DNA of 18,393 nt from a virus, in UHGV virus genome UHGV-1280364; one strand, given 5' to 3'. Every line of letters starts with the position of its first letter. The first letter of the stretch is position 1. Positions 7,803 through 17,817 of this stretch are shown one piece after another. Position numbers and translations under genes: made by a program. The notes beneath the pieces are model-generated. The model saw nothing but the letters and a program-made list of their open reading frames with translations, made no database searches and was not told the origin of the DNA.

Positions 7803-8259
7803 TCTTTAGCTCCTCGTATTTTGAGCGCGGTAACTGATAAATCGTGATGCCTACAGGCTTTCCATTGCTGGTATAAGCATCATCAAGGTGACCAACACGG
7901 GTAGCGCCAAGCAAACGGATAATTGCCCGTCCGTATTTCGTGGTGTCAGGAACCATAGTGATGCTGTTAAGGAATGGTGAGTTTTCGAGAAGCCATTTGC
8001 AGAATAATCGATGCCCTTGCAGTGCATATTCGCCACGGAATCCGGGGTCGTACACCGCATGGCATTCAACAACGCTATGCCAGAAGTTACGCACTTCATG
8101 CACTCCGACCAGCATCAGTCCTTCGTAGATGCCGAGGTATACCGCATCAGGCTTGATGTAGTATTTGTCTCCACTGTCTACGATATTTCCCGTGTTTGCC
8201 GGGTTGTTGAGGAATTCTGCAAGCTTCACCGGATTATCGATGAGCTTTATTTCCATCAC
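7777..8259 (-). CDS. Hypothetical phage protein in the gp14 position (160 aa)
   Basis: Complete ORF between the tail needle and gp7-like genes, overlapping both neighbours as is usual in this operon. No family recognised. Confidence 0.4.
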
Positions 8260-9209
8260 TGCTCCGCAATGATTTTGATGGTTGTGGCAGTAAACGCCGC
8301 ACCATTAGACTGAATGGTTAACGTGCTGCCATTTGTGGCAAGAAAGCCGTCTTTATCCACGCTGAAGAACGTAGCTAACAGGATGTTGTCGGTTGTTGTC
8401 GCCGCATTACGACTGCTTACCAGTGTGTCAGGAACAGAGCCGGAAAAGGTTAGCTGCATTGACCTGTTGGCGGTTCCGCTGGGCCACGTCCCGACGATCG
8501 ACAGCTTGAAGAACAAGGTTTTGTTCTCGTTGAACACAACCATCTTGTTGTTAACGGTGTCGAAGAATGGTGCCAACGTGCCGGATGACGGCGTGAGCGT
8601 TTTCAGCAGGCTAACAAGGTTGGTCGGCGCTGTCGGAATGGTTACTGATACGCCAGAGTAAACAACCTCTGATTTCTTTCGCGTGATGGCATACTCAAGC
8701 GCAGATATTCTTGTTGAGTGATCACCAACTGTGCTTTGTAGCGTCGAAATACTTCCCTCTGCCGCTGTGAGCCTAGTATCAAGTGCGTCGATATCGGTTG
8801 TATTCTGAGTTATTCGCGCATCATGGTTTGCTAACTCAGATTCATTGGCAGCAATTCGCGTCTCGTGATCAGCCAGCTCTGTTTCGGCAGCAGTAATCCT
8901 TGTTTCATGATCTGCAAGAGTGCTTTCCGCTGCTGCGATTCTATGTTCATGATTGACGAGAGTTGCTTCAGCAGCAGCAATTCTGGATTCATGGTCTGCA
9001 AGGGTGACATCCTGCTCATCATTCTTCACCTGTGCATCATAAGCCCCCTTCCCTGCTTCGTTGGCCTTGTTCGCCACGTTACCAACATCAGCACCCTGTG
9101 CGATAACGTACAACAGATACGACTGCGAGAAGATATTGCGTGGAAGGACTGATGTGTCGAGTCGTGTAGCCTGAATGATTACCGGCTCATTGAGATTCGA
9201 ATCAGCCAT
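8256..9209 (-). CDS. Tail needle protein (gp26-like) with a non-P22 C-terminal domain (317 aa)
   Basis: N-terminus [43 protein letters not shown]...[13 protein letters not shown] matches the P22 gp26 N-terminus as recalled. Followed by 14-residue repeats and a C-terminal domain unlike P22 (Sf6/HK620-type knob suspected). Confidence 0.85.
8790..9000. repeat. Imperfect 42-bp tandem repeats encoding the tail-needle coiled coil
   Basis: About four to five tandem units encode repeats of the form [11 protein letters not shown]... (for example [56 protein letters not shown]). Boundaries approximate. Confidence 0.7.
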
Positions 9210-10627
9210 TACTCAATCCTTATCTGGCAGCCAGACAGAGTGACAGGTGACTTCGTGATAACGCGCAATTTGAAGCCGACATTTTTCCTGATTCGCCCGA
9301 CACGCTTCCACAAAACGCGTTTGTCGTAAACGAACGGTTCATTCTGTTCAATCATCTGCTCACGTCCGTAATTTATGCCGTCAGTGGTTGCAGAGAGGAA
9401 CAGGCGGTCGGCGTACTGCGCAACGCCAGTTGACGATTCAACCTCAAGATCGAACACTCTGGCGTTATCCGCTTTGAACAACGGAGTAAACAGCAGGTGT
9501 TCTTGCTGTAGCCCATACTGGCTGCTGATATCGAACTGCAATTTCCCGGTCACGGACTCCAGCTTATCTCCGCACGTTATCTGATTGCCTTCATAAATGA
9601 AGTCGATAGCGCGGTACACATCGTCATACAGGCCTGTTTTCAACACACACCATTGCGGACCATTTGCGCTTGAAGATGCGTCGTACACGAGGACGTGACG
9701 CGGAAGATGGATAATCAGCAACTCATGCGCATCAAACCGCAGCGATTCCATTACGCCATCAGCCAGTTCATCAGCAGTGTAGGAGCGGAGAATTTTCTCA
9801 ATGCTCGCGCTGGCGATTGGTGATACCTGACCGGAACCGATGATGTACACAGACGGCGCACCTGTTGCCGGATTGCTGATGAACGCATACGAATCAGCAA
9901 ACGGCGTTTTGCAGTAAGTCCCGGCGATGCCTTTTTGCACCATCAGTGATGGCTGTGCGACATACAAAGCAGCACCAACGGTGGTTGCACCAGTCAGGGA
10001 GAAATATTCAATCGTCGATGAACCAAAGCAGACGATGAAGTCTCGCCATGTTCCGATGCCGATAATACCGTCAGGCTGAGACTCAGCACGATATTGTGCG
10101 CTGTATCGGTCAGGATGTGATTCGTCTTCAGGGTCAGTGATAAACCATGAATCAGTGCCGTCTTTTGACCACGCATAACGCCCACGCAAGCGCGTAATGT
10201 CACGAACCGAACCTAACTCATACTGCGTGAATCCGCTGTCTGTAGGCCAGTTTGAGACGGTTTTAACTGTGCCATCATAGCGGTATTCGACCAGTTGCCC
10301 GTTAACGCCTACAGCCTGAGATGTACGACCATGCGCCATTGATACACGACCACTTCCGGCAACATCACCGACTTCACTTTCGCCCTTATACAGCTTGCCA
10401 CCACATACGCGATAAACAGCATTCTGCGCCATGTTGTACTCGACGCCCCGCGATACGCCGTTCACGTCGGAACGTTTGGCAATGCCCGGGAATGAGCGAA
10501 GATATCCGCTGCTGTTGAGGATTTCTTTGGGTGTAGCCAGCATATTCACTGGCAGATAGTCGATATAGTCAGCGCTTCGAAAGTCTTTGCCGACACCTTT
10601 CATAAGCGGAAGTTGCTGAATCGGCAT
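9209..10627 (-). CDS. Tail accessory / head-completion protein, P22 gp10-like (472 aa)
   Basis: N-terminus [49 protein letters not shown] matches P22 gp10 as recalled, and the length is the same (472 aa). Confidence 0.88.
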
Positions 10628-10636
10628 TTATTCACC

Positions 10637-11098
10637 TCACGTACTCGGATTATCTTTCTCGATGTAAAACCGATTCCACGTAAACGCGCTTTTGTTACCA
10701 CTACCGCGAGGCATGTCATTTCGCCGCTCAAGTGGTGGTATTTTGGTTAAAGCGATACAGATTGTCTGATATGCACTGTCAGCAGCGGTAAGGAGAGCAT
10801 CCGACGGCTGAATGACGTTATCCATGCACATCTGCACAGCGAGCTTCAAAGCGACGCCATCATTTGCCCATGCAGGGATACCTGAATCATCGTCAGGTAA
10901 CGGCATGATGCCGTTTTCTGTATCAGCAAACTGATATCCAAGCTCGATACCTTTCGCCTGCCATGCTGCCATCATGTCTTCGAGATCATTAATGGCATCT
11001 TCAATTGCCTGAGGGTCAGCATCTGTCAACGTGGCATTGGAATACAGCCCGGCTTTTCGCAAAGCCTTTAGAACGAGATCACCCTTCGTTTTCGCCAT
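10637..11098 (-). CDS. Head-completion / tail accessory factor, P22 gp4-like (153 aa)
   Basis: Resembles the P22 gp4 N-terminus (KTKGDLV..ALRK.G......LTD..PQ...DA.DDLE.MMA.W) and sits between the coat and gp10-like genes. Confidence 0.75.
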   Translation of the reverse strand: MAKTKGDLVLKALRKAGLYSNATLTDADPQAIEDAINDLEDMMAAWQAKGIELGYQFADTENGIMPLPDDDSGIPAWANDGVALKLAVQMCMDNVIQPSDALLTAADSAYQTICIALTKIPPLERRNDMPRGSGNKSAFTWNRFYIEKDNPST

Positions 11099-11308: not shown

Positions 11309-12562
11309 TTACTGCCCGGCAATAACGATGCCCGTATATTCAGGAACCAGTACAGAGCAACCGTACAGAGTGGTGAAACGCGCAGTGGTTACGCCTTTGA
11401 TGTGGTCGAAGGCGTAAGACATGATCAGCGTAGCGCCCTGCTCGGTGGTTGCTGTCATTACCTGTGGACCCTGACCAGTCGGGAACGCTAGTTTGCCGTA
11501 CATCAGCTCAACAGAACCATCAGCCCAGAACAGGTTGGCCGGTGCGGCATTTTTGTTGAGAATGGTGATTGCTGCACCATTTGCCGCGTTAGCATCAACG
11601 TTTGCATATGGACGGCTGGCGACATCTGCGTTGTCAGGCGGCAGAATTTTCGGGGAGATAGTCACTGTCGTTCCGCTTACTGCCAGAACGCGGAATACCT
11701 GCGGCTGCCCGGTGGTGTCTTTGGTGATCTGGTGTACAGAATTCACGCCAGCAATGGTGAACGCATCACCAACCTGCAACCCAGATGCAGATACCGTAAT
11801 AGTCCCCTGTCGGTTATCCACTGGCATATCGTTGGCATCTTTCGCTTCAACCTTGTGCGCAGGTTCAGCCGCCAGCGTCAGGGAAGTTGCTGTACCCTTC
11901 GGAACACGACCAGAAATATCGGTCTTGTAGCTATCGAAGGACGCAACCGGAGGGATCTGCGCTTTTTCGTATGCTGTCAGGGTTGCGCCCTGAGCGTAGG
12001 CACGGTGACCAAGCTCGCCAGCAAGGTCTTTGTAGTTGAAGGGGTTCCAGAAAGAGCGACGGTTGATACCCTGTGGTACACCAATCGCCGTCATGGTGGC
12101 ATCAATACCTGCCGCACAGTTCCACAAATCACGGCCCTGTGAACCAGTGGTTGAGTCAGCCATTGTGATCACGTTAGTAGCACGCTGCGTGACCATGGAA
12201 ATCAGGTCAGAGTCAATCTGTGCAGCAAGGCGCATACCTGCGGCGCGACCAGCTTCAGTTTTATGTTCCGGGTCACGCATTTCACGCGCATCCAGAGTGT
12301 ACAGAATGTTTTTCGGCTCCTTGAACACAGAAGGAACAAGGCGCTGAACCAGTGCTGTTGGCGTTTTGCCGCTGAGATCTAGGCCTTCCTCAATGTTCAT
12401 GTGGTAATGCTGCGGACGATACAGAACATCACCTGCTCGCTGCATTGCTGTATCACCGGGACGGAATTTTTTAGCGTTACGGGAAACTACGCAGGCGGCC
12501 TCAAAGCCTTCAACGTAGTTTTCGAACATGATTTCAAGGTTTTTTGCTAATTGGTTAGCCAT
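11309..12562 (-). CDS. Major capsid (coat) protein, P22 gp5 / Sf6 gp5-like (417 aa)
   Basis: Synteny (scaffold, coat, gp4) and recalled similarity to P22 coat (for example YANV.....A..I.ILN...A..N.FWAD). Followed by a strong terminator. Confidence 0.85.
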   Translation of the reverse strand: MANQLAKNLEIMFENYVEGFEAACVVSRNAKKFRPGDTAMQRAGDVLYRPQHYHMNIEEGLDLSGKTPTALVQRLVPSVFKEPKNILYTLDAREMRDPEHKTEAGRAAGMRLAAQIDSDLISMVTQRATNVITMADSTTGSQGRDLWNCAAGIDATMTAIGVPQGINRRSFWNPFNYKDLAGELGHRAYAQGATLTAYEKAQIPPVASFDSYKTDISGRVPKGTATSLTLAAEPAHKVEAKDANDMPVDNRQGTITVSASGLQVGDAFTIAGVNSVHQITKDTTGQPQVFRVLAVSGTTVTISPKILPPDNADVASRPYANVDANAANGAAITILNKNAAPANLFWADGSVELMYGKLAFPTGQGPQVMTATTEQGATLIMSYAFDHIKGVTTARFTTLYGCSVLVPEYTGIVIAGQ

Positions 12563-12580: not shown

Positions 12581-13474
12581 TTATTTTTTTGCCTTTTTAG
12601 CGGCGAAATACGGCGTCCAGTCACCAGTTTCCAGCGCCTTGGCTTTCAATTTGCCGAGGTTGTTGATTACTGCGCCGTTGCTCCCCTTAACTGTCGGGGT
12701 TGTGGCTGCCGTGGTTTTTGCTTTTGGCATGATTCTGGCCTTAGATTCGATACGTTCCAGCAGACGACCAATTGCTACGGGGTTGGTAGCTTCTGCCAGT
12801 TGCTTGCGCAGTTCAGCGTTGCGACCAAGCGCCAGAACAACGATTTCCGGCTTCTCTGACTCAAACAGGATCGCGTTTTGTGTCTCGATGGGGATTTCCT
12901 CGAGTACGGCCTGTTCTGCTTCCTGATAGCCAGGAACCTTGAGAGCCTTAACACGTTGCTGATATTTGGATAATCGCTCTTGATAAGCAGCCTGAAGCTC
13001 CTGCTCCTTCTGCTTGCGAGCCATCTCCTGTTGCTGGTACTTTCCGTTATCCTCTGCCCACTTAGCCATGCGTTGCTGATAGATTTCTTCATCGAAACCG
13101 ATGTCCTCATCATCCAGTTTTGGCATTCGCGGTGGTTGAGTGATTACCGGCTGCTGCTCGACGGGTTTCTGAGACTGACGCATCAGCTCTTTCAGCTCGC
13201 GGTCTTTCTCTTTAATCGTCTTGCGCAGGTGTTTTACCAGTCCATGCTCTGCGCTATCTTCGCTGGTTGGCGAATCCAGCTTTTCATCACCAAAGTAGAA
13301 TTCCTGTTCTGATTCGTCGTCATCAGTTTCAGTAGCTTCCTCTGCATCATTGCCGGAGGACTCACTGCCATCTTCTGTTTCGACTTCTTCAGCCAGTTCG
13401 ACATCATCAGGAATCTTCTCTGATGTATCGGTTTCGATTTCAACTTCTGGTGTGTTTTCTGCCATCTGGTCCAT
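12581..13474 (-). CDS. Scaffolding protein (297 aa)
   Basis: Lies between portal and coat. Highly acidic N-terminus, charged helical middle, basic C-terminal tail (KLKAKALETGDWTPYFAAKKAKK). Confidence 0.75.
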   Translation of the reverse strand: MDQMAENTPEVEIETDTSEKIPDDVELAEEVETEDGSESSGNDAEEATETDDDESEQEFYFGDEKLDSPTSEDSAEHGLVKHLRKTIKEKDRELKELMRQSQKPVEQQPVITQPPRMPKLDDEDIGFDEEIYQQRMAKWAEDNGKYQQQEMARKQKEQELQAAYQERLSKYQQRVKALKVPGYQEAEQAVLEEIPIETQNAILFESEKPEIVVLALGRNAELRKQLAEATNPVAIGRLLERIESKARIMPKAKTTAATTPTVKGSNGAVINNLGKLKAKALETGDWTPYFAAKKAKK

Positions 13475-13564: not shown

Positions 13565-15763
13565 TTACTGCTGTGGTTGTTGCTGAGTTAATTTTTGCAG
13601 GATGCTGCTGATGTCCATGCGCAGCGCATGGCCCTGTGCCTGACTTTTCAGGACAAGCTCTGCATCAGCACGGGCATTATCTCCTTGCTGTTGCTGGAAC
13701 TGTCCGAGCAGTTTCAGCGCCTCACGGATATCAGATTTTTGCTGGCTATCGGCAGATGCGAGGATTTTCACAACATTTGCCGCAGCAACCTGAGCATCCG
13801 TCTGTGCCTGGAATGCTTTAACCTGAATGGCTGCCTGTTCGTTCTGCGCTTTCTGCAATTCAGCCTGACCAGCAAGAAGCTGACCTTGCGCAGCAACCAT
13901 AGCCGGATCTGGCTGACTGGCCTGTTGTTGTTTCGCCTGCTCAACCATCTGCTGCTCTTCTGGCGTTCTCGGCTTGATAACTCCAGACAGAAGCAACTGA
14001 TTGCGGTTGTATTCTTTAAGGTCGTCCATCCCTTCGCCATCCATATTGTCGAGAATCATCGACGATACAAGGTCGTGCTTCGGCGTTCCTGGTGGGATAA
14101 GTGCCAGCATGGAAAGTAACGACTTAACCGTTGCATCACGGCGAGTAGCGAACGACTGACCGACATCGACAGTCACTTCATAGTTACCCTGCGAAAGGTC
14201 GTTAAGCGCGATAACCTGCCCTGTCTGACGGTCAACCACTTCACCAGTCATCAGCGCCACGTCATCGCTGCCGTCCTCATTAACGATGCGCATTGGCGTA
14301 TCGCTGCCATAGACTTCACGCGCCATAGAAAGCCACACAACGCCAGCGCGACGCATGGATTTAGCCATGTTGTCCATGTAGATATAGGACTGCGTATCCA
14401 TCCGGTTAAAGATGCTATCAACGGTATCGGTGGCGACGTTGCTCGGCATGTTCTCAAGCTGCGACGCACCTGTAATTTGCTGAATAGCCGTTCCGGTGTA
14501 CTGCAATAGCCCGGCAAGAGCTGGCGGCATTTGTGTCGGAGGTGTATAACTGCTGACCTGAGCCTGCGCAGTAATATCTCCGTTTTTGTTTTTCAGACTG
14601 ACCATCGGCAGGAACGCCGGGCGCTTTTTGTTGCGCTCCGCCCAATGAGTGGCAAGAGGACCAGGAATCATGTCAACATCAACTACAGGAATGCCATCAC
14701 CGCCAGCCTGAGTAGCGTTATCTGCAATCATGGAAACCATCAGGTTCTCAAGACGCTGCGCATCCATCGCTTTTGCTGCGTGGCCTTCGATTCGCTCCTG
14801 ATTATCAACAAATGAGCGACGCCCATATACCGGGATGAGAGGAATATGTTCGCCCGGAATACGCTTCGGTTCTTCCAGCCATTCAGCGCCAGACAGAAGA
14901 CCGCAATAAACGCGGCGCTTCTTCACCGTTCGCTCGCCAATCAGTTCGAATGCACCATCGGTCAGCTCGTCGACAATATCTTTGATTTGCTCTTCATCAT
15001 AGATTGCCGTTTCTCCGCTGACAGGGTTACGCCATGCTGTGAGCTTCACCTTCTCTATGCGGACTTCGTAGTAACGTCCAACATAGATGGCATCTGGCGT
15101 TGACCAGTCATATTGAGTGCCAGTGTCATCACGAGAAAGGCTTGCCGCGATGGAATCAGGGTATTCAGCCTCGAACGCTTTAGGCGTCATGGAGAACATT
15201 TCCATAGCCCACATAGCATCAGAGCGGTCATATTGCTTGCTGTCCTGATCGAAGAAGACGCATGTCGCTGGGTCGTAAACAGGAAGAAGGCTGATGCGTC
15301 GCTGCTCGTTACTCGGATCCATTTCATCTTCGTAATCAGCACACATGCGGAAACAACCGAATCCGCCCGTTACAGCATCATCAAATGCGTTATCACACGC
15401 TTCGCCACCGGATGTTTCCTGATAATCAGCGCGGAATTTGCCGTTCATCTTTTCGGCTAACGCTTCCGATGCCTTGTCATCCTTCGGCCTGAATTTAACG
15501 CTGATGCGATTCTGCCGATACTCGCCAATGATGCGATCACATTCACGGGCAATCTTATTTAGTTCAAAGCGCGGATAATGCTCAAACCTGCCTTCATCAA
15601 ATGAGTAACCAGCGTTTGTGCTGCCTTCCCACTGTGCGCCGGATACCCGGACGAAACGTTGAGCCTCAATAATCTGCTCACGCATATCCTGCGTTGCTGA
15701 CCAGGCATTATCAAAGTTGCACAGCACCTTGCGATGCCAGTCAGTCATCTTTTTTTCTGCCAT
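13565..15763 (-). CDS. Portal protein, P22 gp1-like (732 aa)
   Basis: Motifs match P22 portal as recalled (KRRVY....GEHIP..PV.G; PEEQQ.....Q...DPAMV.AQG.LL.GQAEL.KAQN), including the Gln-rich C-terminal barrel region. Size similar to P22 gp1 (725 aa). Confidence 0.9.
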   Translation of the reverse strand: MAEKKMTDWHRKVLCNFDNAWSATQDMREQIIEAQRFVRVSGAQWEGSTNAGYSFDEGRFEHYPRFELNKIARECDRIIGEYRQNRISVKFRPKDDKASEALAEKMNGKFRADYQETSGGEACDNAFDDAVTGGFGCFRMCADYEDEMDPSNEQRRISLLPVYDPATCVFFDQDSKQYDRSDAMWAMEMFSMTPKAFEAEYPDSIAASLSRDDTGTQYDWSTPDAIYVGRYYEVRIEKVKLTAWRNPVSGETAIYDEEQIKDIVDELTDGAFELIGERTVKKRRVYCGLLSGAEWLEEPKRIPGEHIPLIPVYGRRSFVDNQERIEGHAAKAMDAQRLENLMVSMIADNATQAGGDGIPVVDVDMIPGPLATHWAERNKKRPAFLPMVSLKNKNGDITAQAQVSSYTPPTQMPPALAGLLQYTGTAIQQITGASQLENMPSNVATDTVDSIFNRMDTQSYIYMDNMAKSMRRAGVVWLSMAREVYGSDTPMRIVNEDGSDDVALMTGEVVDRQTGQVIALNDLSQGNYEVTVDVGQSFATRRDATVKSLLSMLALIPPGTPKHDLVSSMILDNMDGEGMDDLKEYNRNQLLLSGVIKPRTPEEQQMVEQAKQQQASQPDPAMVAAQGQLLAGQAELQKAQNEQAAIQVKAFQAQTDAQVAAANVVKILASADSQQKSDIREALKLLGQFQQQQGDNARADAELVLKSQAQGHALRMDISSILQKLTQQQPQQ

Positions 15764-16212
15764 ATCAACCTACACCACAAGGAATTGAGTAACTGGAATA
15801 GTCGGGTTGCGCAGCCGACTCCGGGCAATGCATACACATCATCAGCGCATCAGCCAGGTTAGGAGATGGAATACCGAGCTTCTGCTTCATTTCGACCTTA
15901 GTCATAAGCTCCAGCTTCCCGTTGTGCGCCGGATACCCGGACGAAACGTTGAGCCTCAATAATCTGCTCACGCATATCCTGCGTTGCTGACCAGGCATTA
16001 TCAAAGTTGCACAGCACCTTGCGATGCCAGTCAGTCATCTTTTTTTCTGCCATATCAACCTACACCACAAGGAATTGAGTAACTGGAATAGTCGGGTTGC
16101 GCAGCCGACTCCGGGCAATGCATACACATCATCAGCGCATCAGCCAGGTTAGGAGATGGAATACCGAGCTTCTGCTTCATTTCGACCTTAGTCATAAGCT
16201 CCAGCTTCCCGT
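15633..16212. repeat. Perfect 290-bp tandem duplication spanning the terminase stop and portal start (15633-15922 and 15923-16212)
   Basis: Direct comparison shows the two copies are identical, with 3-nt microhomology (tgt) at the junction. Each copy carries the portal 5' end (131 nt), the intergenic base and the terminase 3' end. Confidence 0.92.
15765..16004 (-). pseudogene. Chimeric ORF created by the 290-bp duplication (out-of-frame portal 5' sequence fused to a second copy of the terminase C-terminus)
   Basis: The last 51 residues (GKLELMTKVEM...SIPCGVG) are identical to the C-terminus of the 377-aa terminase ORF. The N-terminal 28 residues come from the duplicated portal start read out of frame. 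Confidence 0.7.
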
Positions 16213-17817
16213 TGTTATTGAATTTGCGCTGAATCTGCGTCAGTTCTGCAAACAGCTTCTCCAGCATCTTCTCGCCTATCGCTTCTTTGTCGAAACTCAG
16301 CATGTCGTCGGGGTCTGCATACTCACCGTGGACAACCGCCCGATATGTCAGATACAGCCTGTCAGCCAGCGCGTAATAGAATTGCGCTCGCTTATTACGG
16401 AACACATCGCCAATAGTGCGAACGTTGTCGCCCTGCACGACTTCATCAGCCCATGCTCCGGCCTGATATGGTGCATCTTCATCGAATGGCGATTCGCTGC
16501 CCTTGAACATCGTGGCGGTGATTTTCTTGCCGGAGAACGCTTCCGTTGTCTGTCTGCGTAGCCCGGCACCAACACCATCACCATCCCACAGGTAATGGTC
16601 AGCGCCGTCTTCAATCGCCAGCGAAGTAGCCCAGTCAGCACCCTCGTTGATGTCCATCAGCAGACCTTCGGCAATGCGCTTAACTACCGAACCGTGACGC
16701 GATGCATAACCTTTAGCATCTGGTCCTGTATCTGACGGGTCATGCGCAGAGACAACAGCGCCTTTCGCTTTCCATCCGAGTTTCTTGTGCGCATCGGTAG
16801 CAGCTTCAAGCCATTCACGTTTGATGATTGCCATATCACTTGCGCTCACTGGCTCACCAAGCCAGATGTGACGATACAGTGTCGGGTTTCTGCGTTTACA
16901 CTCTTCCATCTCCAGACGGAGAACTTCAGGAAAGTGCGGGTTGTCGGTGTAGTTCACCGTCAGCAGGCAAATATCATCGGGAGGATTTACAACGAATCGC
17001 TGATAGGTATCGTCGAGTATGTTCTTCGGGTTAAAGCTCACCCATATTTCAGAGAACGGCTTGCGGATGGTTGGTATCAGGATATCCCATGATTCCTTCG
17101 TTACCGCTTCCGCTTCCTCCACCCAGCAGATATCAATGCCTTCGAGCGATTTAATCTTCGTCGGGTTGTTTTTGATGCCGTAGAACATGAACTCACTGGC
17201 TCACCAAGCCAGATGTGACGATACAGTGTCGGGTTTCTGCGTTTACACTCTTCCATCTCCAGACGGAGAACTTCAGGAAAGTGCGGGTTGTCGGTGTAGT
17301 TCACCGTCAGCAGGCAAATATCATCGGGAGGATTTACAACGAATCGCTGATAGGTATCGTCGAGTATGTTCTTCGGGTTAAAGCTCACCCATATTTCAGA
17401 GAACGGCTTGCGGATGGTTGGTATCAGGATATCCCATGATTCCTTCGTTACCGCTTCCGCTTCCTCCACCCAGCAGATATCAATGCCTTCGAGCGATTTA
17501 ATCTTCGTCGGGTTGTTTTTGATGCCGTAGAACATGAACTCAGCATTCGTTCCGAGATGACGAATCATGGAACGCTGAATTTCAAACTCAGCCGTATACC
17601 CTTCACGCTCTATGGTGTCTTCAAGCAGCCGGATTACCGAATCGCTGATACTGTTTTGCAGTTCACGAGCGCAGAGAATACGCACTGGCTGCCGACGCGC
17701 CGCTTCAACAAGCAGCCTCGCAATTGCCCATGACTTACCGCTACCTCGACCGCCTTTGGCGACTTTGTAGCGATGCGCCTCAATGAACGGTTCAAAGATA
17801 GGATTAATCGAGGTCAT
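16055..17817 (-). pseudogene. Terminase large subunit, interrupted by a frameshifting 347-bp internal tandem duplication
   Basis: Walker A motif in the N-terminal ORF ([16 protein letters not shown]). The two track ORFs (17101-17817 and 16055-17188) share a duplicated 115-residue segment. Removing one 347-bp copy gives a single 1416-nt ORF (471 aa), close to the Sf6 gp2 length I recall (470 aa). Its start overlaps the small-subunit stop as ATGA. Confidence 0.85.
16845..17538. repeat. Perfect 347-bp tandem duplication inside the terminase large subunit gene (16845-17191 and 17192-17538)
   Basis: Copies are identical on direct comparison, with 4-nt microhomology (ctca) at the junction. 347 is not a multiple of 3, so it shifts the frame. 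Confidence 0.92.

Follow-up and report, generated by a model that had tools for sequence, protein, structure and literature searches.

The 317-codon gene on the minus strand of the window (the whole stretch of viral DNA analyzed here, 18,393 nucleotides of UHGV virus genome UHGV-1280364) specifies a tail needle, that of a P22-like E. coli prophage of the Lederbergvirus type. We assign it to the 'HS1' subtype, with a mode of action like that of its homologues and with a shaft whose repeat array varies in frame, and we give this reading a probability of about 0.93. The gene is an ordinary one. Its protein type, domains, knob structure (1.1 Å), 16-heptad shaft, and functional role in DNA delivery were all published between 2009 and 2013, and its discovery value is small. 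What is added here is descriptive: public data show shafts of 7 to 20 heptads, reached through many independent in-register gains and losses of 14 or 28 residues at the 42-bp repeats. This repeat-mediated variation in length is genuine and goes somewhat beyond earlier descriptions, and it is not a new kind of system.

Profile searches matched the protein to two PHROG families, 1030 and 1219, which are labeled 'tail needle knob' (E=1.4e-135) and 'tail needle protein' (E=1.1e-59), respectively. It aligns without gaps to ABV04705.1, which is likewise 317 amino acids in length, with 306 of the 317 positions identical (97%). We take ABV04705.1 to be the HS1 needle (EcHS_A0316) of E. coli HS, in part because its C-terminus reads as in the 4K6B sequence. 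The exact amino acid sequence of the window needle is already public, being found under several NCBI accessions, on 24 contigs, and in 81 indexed blocks of a protein collection; its relatives carry the RefSeq name 'tail needle knob protein'. A match was recorded in 955 E. coli genomes. At one IMG/VR locus (L015) the needle is 100% identical to that of the window and the flanks are 94–99% identical, and the duplications of the window are absent. No evidence contradicting the identification as a tail needle was found. Weak Pfam and PHROG matches (crescentin, tropomyosin, MscS_porin, XhlA, and others) fell below the cut-off and were of the generic coiled-coil kind, as was a weak PDB sequence match to reovirus sigma-1; all of these were disregarded. 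Two open reading frames antisense to the needle gene (plus strand, 8314–8661, 115 amino acids; and 8865–9152, 95 amino acids) had no Pfam match and were treated as chance open reading frames.

The gene order in the window, as established by PHROG searches, is canonical for P22-like phages: terminase, portal, scaffold, coat, gp4, gp10, needle, gp14, gp7, gp20, gp16, and ant, all on the minus strand, in agreement with CUS-3, HK620, and Sf6 (Table 1). The needle gene adjoins that of gp10 on its downstream side, with gp14 and the ejection genes further downstream, which is the position characteristic of the needle family. The start of a tailspike is encoded in the last 239 bases of the window. Both ends of the needle gene overlap its neighbors, as is usual in the tightly packed late operons of phages. 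One base is common to the needle ATG and the TAA that ends the upstream hub gene (TAATG, 9207–9211), and the needle TGA overlaps the start of gp14 (GTGATG, 8254–8259). The true gp14 start is likely the ATG at 8256; in relatives, gp14 is annotated as 159 amino acids in length, and its first base coincides with the final base of the needle stop. Relatives label the gp10 gene 'packaged DNA stabilization protein gp10'. In DNA comparisons, the window matches, in mosaic blocks of 94–97% identity, E. coli P22-like phages such as CUS-3, Kapi1, 720R6, Sf101, HK620, and Sf6. The window contains tandem duplications of 233, 290, and 347 bp, the last of which splits the terminase gene; if they are genuine, the prophage may be defective and the needle possibly unused at present.

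Table 1. Positions of the tail needle gene, its parts, and its neighbors in the window.
Feature	Residues	Position	Strand	Basis or remark
Tail needle gene (P22 gene 26 / Sf6 gene 9 orthologue)	317 aa	8256..9209	minus	ORF list; ATG start
Tail needle gene stop (TGA)		8256-8258	minus	
N-terminal domain, putatively hub-plugging	1-62	9024..9209	minus	Homology to P22/HK620 gp26; helical hairpin in P22/Sf6 structures
Coiled-coil shaft	63-174 (112 residues, 16 heptads)	8688..9023	minus	Continuous a/d pattern, starting at NxxQD
Five tandem 14-residue (42-bp) units	70-139	8793..9002	minus	TRF, unit table, shuffle test
Units 1-4, well conserved		8835-9002	minus	Pairwise identities
Unit 5, degenerate		8793-8834	minus	Pairwise identities
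Sf6-type needle knob (TNF-like jelly-roll trimer)	177-317	8259..8681	minus	PF16532, PDB, Foldseek
gp14-like (DUF2824), downstream neighbor		7777..8259	minus	PHROG 651, E=2e-74; PF11039, E=2.2e-65
Tail hub gp10	472 aa	9209..10627	minus	PHROG 578 'head closure Hc3', E=3.5e-228
Adaptor gp4		10637-11098	minus	PHROG
Coat		11309-12562	minus	PHROG
Scaffold		12581-13474	minus	PHROG
Portal		13565-15763	minus	PHROG
Ejection protein gp7		7128-7802	minus	PHROG
Ejection protein gp20		5844-7118	minus	PHROG
Ejection protein gp16		3733-5844	minus	PHROG
Antirepressor (ant)		340-1341	minus	PHROG

The N-terminal 80 residues had been described in the first-pass annotation as P22 gp26-like, and this holds: P22 gp26 has the same residue at 62 of the 80 positions, and HK620 gp26 at 73 of them. 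Over the first 60 residues, which carry the N-domain of the family, the identities are 47/60 and 57/60, respectively. PDB sequence searches returned 2poh, 3c9i, and 5bu5 at E-values of about 1e-41 to 1e-45 (1e-27 to 1e-45 with 8eap included). The AlphaFold2 (AF2) model of the monomer is of low confidence over this domain, in the N-terminal 40 residues, as expected because the fold depends on the trimer.

The shaft forms a continuous heptad pattern whose register was anchored at N63, Q66, and D67, the NxxQD polar core layer of the needle. In P22 gp26 this layer binds Ca2+ (PMC13580157). The a positions of the 16 heptads read N L I L I L I L I L I I L I V I, and the d positions read Q H A H A H A H N H N L A L H L. 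The AF2 monomer has a single helix across amino acids 42–176, with pLDDT above 90 for amino acids 61–160, and the shaft is presumably a trimeric coiled coil, as in the needles of P22, Sf6, and HS1. Its 16 heptads equal the number published for HS1, whose needle has '16 heptad repeats, compared to 11 in the Sf6 and P22 needles' (PMC3741392), and place it in the HS1 subtype.

The shaft had been proposed to be built from tandem 14-residue (42-bp) repeats. The repeat is real and accounts for about five of the eight two-heptad blocks (~70 of 112 residues), but the remainder does not consist of copies: amino acids 140–174 (35 residues) are heptad-periodic without being copies of the unit. The unit has the consensus L-[AV]-[DN]-H-[ED]-x-R-I-[AT]-[AQ]-[AN]-[ET]-x-x and comprises two heptads, in which the a and d positions are Leu and His in the first and Ile and Ala in the second; the Arg occupies position g of the first heptad. 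The units that begin at amino acids 70, 84, 98, and 112 share 8–11 of 14 residues with one another (20–32 of 42 nucleotides), and the fifth unit, at amino acid 126, shares 5–7 of 14 with the others. TRF reported a tandem repeat at 8883–9006 with a period of 42, 3.0 copies, 68% matches, and a score of 109. Across 16 homologues (72–99% identity) from E. coli, Klebsiella aerogenes, and Serratia marcescens, no unit departs from its His (residues 73, 87, 101, 115, and 129 here) or its Arg. Within the shaft, identities at a lag of 14 residues number 40, as against 16 at a lag of 7 and 17 at a lag of 21. When residues were permuted within heptad positions, the lag-14 identities fell to 24.9 ± 3.5, with only 2 of 20000 shuffles reaching 40. 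The period-14 signal exceeds that of a plain coiled coil.

The C-terminus is a knob of the Sf6 type. PF16532 ('Sf6-type phage tail needle knob', Phage_tail_NK) matched amino acids 136–317 over its entire length (profile positions 1–175 of 175) with 355.6 bits (E=4.8e-107), the curated cut-off being 27 bits, and amino acids 165–317 are 98–99% identical to the crystallized knobs of Sf6 (3RWN) and HS1 (4K6B). The AF2 monomer has a β-sandwich at amino acids 179–316, for which Foldseek returned 3rwn and 4k6b as top matches (E about 5e-22) and, behind them, TNF, C1q, and BclA folds. In the HS1 knob, a buried L-glutamate is contacted by E181, K235, S283, D285, L290, and K312 (HS1 numbering), and phosphate is bound at the tip by the triad S266-R267-N268 (PMC3741392). 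All nine of these published ligand residues occur at the corresponding positions of the window knob.

These comparisons bear out the earlier suggestions that the C-terminus differs from the P22 needle tip and may be an Sf6-type knob. BLASTP gave no significant alignment of the needle to P22 gp26 beyond amino acid 159 or to HK620 gp26 beyond amino acid 98, and the C-terminal 90–100 residues did not align with residues 141–233 of P22 gp26, as a P22/HK620-type tip would. HK620 had been named along with Sf6 as a phage with a knob, which is incorrect. Its 233-amino acid needle can be aligned over the full length of P22 gp26 (61% identity) and has a P22-type tip, in agreement with the published statement that the knob 'is lacking in P22 and HK620' (PMC6024685).

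Length variation was surveyed among relatives of the needle, of which a collection of 5.8 billion proteins contained 2422 at E≤1e-20; the best 120 cluster representatives were examined. Their total lengths are 254, 268, 282, 289, 296, 303, 310, 317, 331, 338, and 345 amino acids. Shaft length was measured between the NDEQD and ALEYA anchors, by which 116 representatives could be scored, and 112 of these 116 have shafts that differ from the window shaft by a multiple of 7 residues. The shaft classes among the best 120 representatives comprise 7, 9, 11, 12, 13, 14, 15, 16, 18, 19, and 20 heptads. This range is wider than the 11–16 heptads published in 2013 (PMC3741392) and extends, at the descriptive level, a property that was already known. 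The first-pass annotation had anticipated that the repeats could permit length change by recombination and had called for a survey of copy number; the in-register gains and losses of units seen here bear that idea out. Neither an invariant repeat count nor a full alignment of the needle to P22 gp26 was found, the two outcomes named beforehand as telling against the earlier claims.

Written as 14-mers, the shafts disclose at least 12 distinct events with exactly in-register junctions. The 303-amino acid class contains three separate one-unit deletions (at junctions 1/2, 2/3, and 4/5), and the 289-amino acid class two different two-unit deletions. In the 345-amino acid class, units 1–2 are duplicated (28 residues), and the 331-amino acid class has the same duplication plus a deletion. 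A 268-amino acid form lacks 49 residues between two DHxTRI motifs. Shafts of the Sf6 type vary likewise, with a 14-residue duplication (296 amino acids), a 28-residue duplication (310), a triplication (338), and deletions (268 and 254). Three junctions were read at the DNA level and showed microhomology of 7–8 bp: a 42-bp deletion in strain CFSAN061770 lies at the 7-bp microhomology CGCGAAT, an 84-bp deletion lies at CTGCTGC, and the 345-amino acid allele has two 100% identical tandem copies of 84 bp with an 8-bp junction repeat. Given these short junction homologies and the 48–76% DNA identity among the units of the window allele, homologous recombination between units is probably inefficient, and the events were probably rare instances of slippage or of recombination at microhomology. 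Some length differences between lineages are exchanges of whole modules in mosaic fashion and not intragenic events. The 16-heptad form is kept in homologues of 72–79% identity from E. coli, Klebsiella aerogenes, and Serratia marcescens, and because it is conserved across genera, this form is old and stable; the array is not hypervariable.

By analogy with P22, Sf6, and HS1, whose published study supplies the trimeric state, plug function, release, and kinetic effect of the tip, three chains of the window protein would assemble into one long fiber. The N-terminal hairpins would enter the channel of the gp10 hub and plug it, keeping the packaged DNA in the head, in the role drawn from cryo-EM of Sf6, in which the hairpins of the trimer come together as a quasi-six-fold plug inside the channel of the hexameric hub (PMC9728967). 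The coiled coil would project from the tail tip and hold the TNF-like knob trimer at the distal end of the needle. During infection, the needle would meet the outer membrane and be released, leaving the channel open for gp7, gp20, gp16, and DNA. Published work describes a needle that reaches past the tailspikes, contacts the cell surface, and is then lost, with the ejection proteins and DNA next (PMC3741392), and contact followed by loss has been seen by cryo-ET, as summarized in a passage of PMC9400499. The tip would affect the speed of DNA delivery and not host range. Among relatives, the 42-bp array gains and loses units in frame, probably through recombination or slippage at homologies of 7–8 bp, so that needle length shifts in steps of 7 or 14 residues with the register of the coiled coil intact.

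Three other readings were weighed against this one. It is improbable that the knob is a receptor-binding domain or secondary-receptor adhesin that sets host species or strain, even though it would lie at the far tip of the tail, the part expected to touch the membrane first, has a TNF/C1q-like fold common to receptor-binding knobs such as PRD1 P5, and belongs to a needle type known in 2013 only from Escherichia and Shigella phages (PMC3741392). Knob needles also occur in Klebsiella, Serratia, Salmonella, Aeromonas, and Shewanella records, and the knob is 98–99% invariant across phages with tailspikes of at least 29 lengths, unlike a determinant of specificity. P22 carrying the Sf6 or HS1 knob gave normal yields on Salmonella with only the kinetics of K+ release shifted, and P22 with a foldon in place of the tip was also viable (PMC3741392), which argues that the tip modulates the rate of DNA delivery and not host specificity. 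Host-range mutations of Sf6 all map to the tailspike and none to the needle (PMC9400499). The earlier proposal that the knob is implicated in interaction with the host envelope is to be qualified by these hybrid-phage experiments, in which the knob was not host-specific and changed only DNA-delivery kinetics (PMC3741392).

The remaining two readings concern the shaft and the tip. There is very little chance that the 14-residue period is a trivial effect of heptads and low complexity, with the length classes due to exchange of unrelated shaft modules. A period of 7 is seen in any coiled coil, A, E, and T are abundant in the shaft, the needle draws many weak Pfam coiled-coil matches, and Sf6-type and HS1-type shafts are distinct lineages (PMC3741392); against this, the excess at a lag of 14 over lags of 7 and 21 was almost never reached by heptad-preserving shuffles, and variants of 90–97% identity differ by exact blocks of 42 or 84 bp with microhomology at the junctions and, in one case, a 100% identical 84-bp copy. 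The probability that the needle is instead of the P22/HK620 type, with a tip of inverted coiled coil and β-helix that has diverged beyond recognition, is close to nil. The resemblance of the N-terminal 80 residues to P22 and HK620 speaks for it, as does the 233-amino acid P22-type needle of CUS-3, the phage most closely matched by the window as a whole. Yet the C-terminus matches the solved Sf6 and HS1 knobs almost residue for residue and neither of the other two tips, and DNA homology to CUS-3 stops at position 8980 (codon 77), inside the first DHESRI unit, a break that we read from the aligned sequences as a mosaic boundary, that is, a module swap and not divergence.

It is doubtful, though conceivable, that the His/Ala two-heptad unit serves as a 'length cassette' that tunes needle reach or plug stability, with the His d layers adding a pH- or metal-sensitive trigger for release. 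The data show polymorphism together with invariant His and Arg residues; adaptive tuning is not among what they show. From 7 to 20 heptads, needle length spans roughly 190 Å. A strict rule by which needle length is matched to tailspike length was rejected. Across 80 IMG/VR loci, the 317-amino acid needle occurs with complete tailspike open reading frames of at least 29 lengths (478–1281 amino acids), which argues against tight geometric matching, albeit in a crude test that compared lengths only and not physical reach. The 254-amino acid needle (7 heptads) occurs in an apparently complete prophage with a tailspike of 603 amino acids. The natural length series could be used to test needle length, or the number of His layers, against plug stability and ejection kinetics. 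The tail needle also serves as a scaffold for engineered nanofibers.

Among known systems, the HS1 needle (ABV04705.1; Leavitt 2013, PMC3741392) is of the same length and has the same 16-heptad shaft, five 14-residue units, knob, and ligand residues. It differs from the window needle by eleven substitutions, with no difference in architecture; relative to the HS1 knob construct, the window has I176 in place of T and A269 in place of S. Sf6 gp9 (282 amino acids; 3RWN; in situ cryo-EM in PMC9728967) has the same N-terminal plug domain and gene position, and a knob about 98% identical to that of the window. Its 11-heptad shaft belongs to another sequence lineage, and overall identity to the window needle is 79% by tblastn; Sf6-type and HS1-type shafts are about 67% identical (PMC3741392). 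The Sf6 shaft has three DHExRI units and a 28-residue block without His, as compared with five units in the window needle. Counted as motifs, DHExRI occurs twice in P22, four times in Sf6, and six times in the window needle, and HK620 has one DHxxRI.

The needles of P22 (gp26, 233 amino acids; 2POH and 3C9I) and HK620 (gp26; 5BU5) share with the window needle a homologous N-terminal domain, the NxxQD layer, the first DHExRI units, and the role of hub plug. They differ in having a shorter shaft (11 heptads in P22) and a tip composed of a β-helix and inverted coiled coil, without a knob. The 300-amino acid 'Tail needle protein gp26' of 4LIN, which we take to be an engineered, artificially elongated P22 gp26 fiber, has an internal coiled-coil block duplicated such that the needle is lengthened in register, as seen by alignment. 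In this lengthening it parallels, as a laboratory product, what the 28-residue duplications do naturally in the 331-, 338-, and 345-amino acid relatives of the window needle. It has the P22-type tip, and the block duplicated in it spans about 56 residues, as against 14 or 28 in the natural cases.

DNA homology to CUS-3, the closest phage match to the whole window, ends inside the needle gene at position 8980, which is needle codon 77 and falls within the first of the 14-residue shaft units carrying the DHESRI motif. Homology returns only weakly, in gp7 (71.7% over 6897–7609). It follows that shaft, knob and gp14 move together as a single mosaic block. The junction of this module looks like the conserved LADHExRI motif itself. 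In many E. coli O157:H7 and O55:H7 genomes (hits H113–H131), the match to the needle gene is confined to the knob half (query 507–954, 95%). At the one such locus examined (L014, from a derivative of O157:H7 strain 86-24), the gene lies in a prophage remnant, carries the annotation of a 5'-truncated pseudogene, and is followed by homologues of gp14, gp7 and gp20, adjoining intS.

Histidine alternates with alanine at the core d positions of the needle coiled coil, occupying every second one. These d-position histidines, along with the g-position arginines, are invariant in 16 homologues, with identity down to 72%. Stacked layers of histidine in the trimer core could confer a stability that depends on pH or metal ions; in the library of papers searched, none dealt with this for the needle. 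A 317-amino acid member of the needle cluster (P0125) bears the JGI/IMG name ‘predicted nucleic acid-binding Zn-ribbon protein’. This name is evidently a misannotation, probably caused by the His-rich repeat.

Coordinates of features in the window and in locus L014
Feature	Position	Strand or source	Basis or remark
Tailspike gene, 5' part	1–239	minus	window stops inside gene
233-bp tandem duplication	2590–3022		211/233 by fixed-offset count; TRF, 99% over 1.9 copies
Block without strong CUS-3 DNA homology	8980 down to about 7609		comparison with CUS-3
d-position His (needle aa 73, 87, 101, 115, 129)	8823–8993	minus	
290-bp tandem duplication	15625–16215		288/290 match between copies
347-bp tandem duplication	16845–17542		347/347 match between copies
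‘Tail needle knob protein’ pseudogene, 5'-truncated	L014, 2412–2948	E. coli O157:H7 86-24 derivative	annotation

Three near-perfect tandem duplications, of 233, 290 and 347 bp, occur in the window. CUS-3 has only one copy of each of these segments, and the IMG/VR locus with an identical needle (L015) has only one copy of the 290- and 347-bp segments. Among the matches listed, the complete E. coli genomes that match best likewise carry the 347-bp segment once, since a 1201-bp query across the duplication matched as two pieces spanning only 854 bases in every record listed; in 630 genomes, a single place covers 80% or more of this query. The 347-bp copy, whose length is not a multiple of 3, splits the large terminase into ORFs of 377 and 238 amino acids, whereas the large terminase of relatives has 471 amino acids. 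The 290-bp copy lies across the boundary between terminase and portal. Either the duplications arose in assembly or this is a defective prophage. At the other end of the window, 76 of the first 79 residues of the tailspike are shared with the endosialidase tailspike of CUS-3, at its head-binding N-terminus; the receptor-binding part of the prophage's own tailspike, and with it the O-antigen or capsule specificity, falls beyond the window.

Among relatives of the needle, 4 of 116 shafts differ in length by other than a multiple of 7 (those of the needles P0055, 309 amino acids in all; P0008, 316; P0051, 298; and P0052, 285) and would thus break the coiled-coil register. Tolerated stutters, inactive alleles and sequencing errors are all possible explanations; the contig with P0055, at 5.03 Mb, is presumably a complete chromosome. 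Needles of 254 amino acids with just seven heptads (P0097 and P0104–P0119; loci L007–L009) occur in many contigs. They sit in apparently complete P22-like prophages, which carry terminase, portal, coat, gp4, gp10, ejection proteins, a 603-amino acid tailspike and an integrase. Compared with the needles of Sf6 and P22, these seven-heptad needles are 28 residues shorter.
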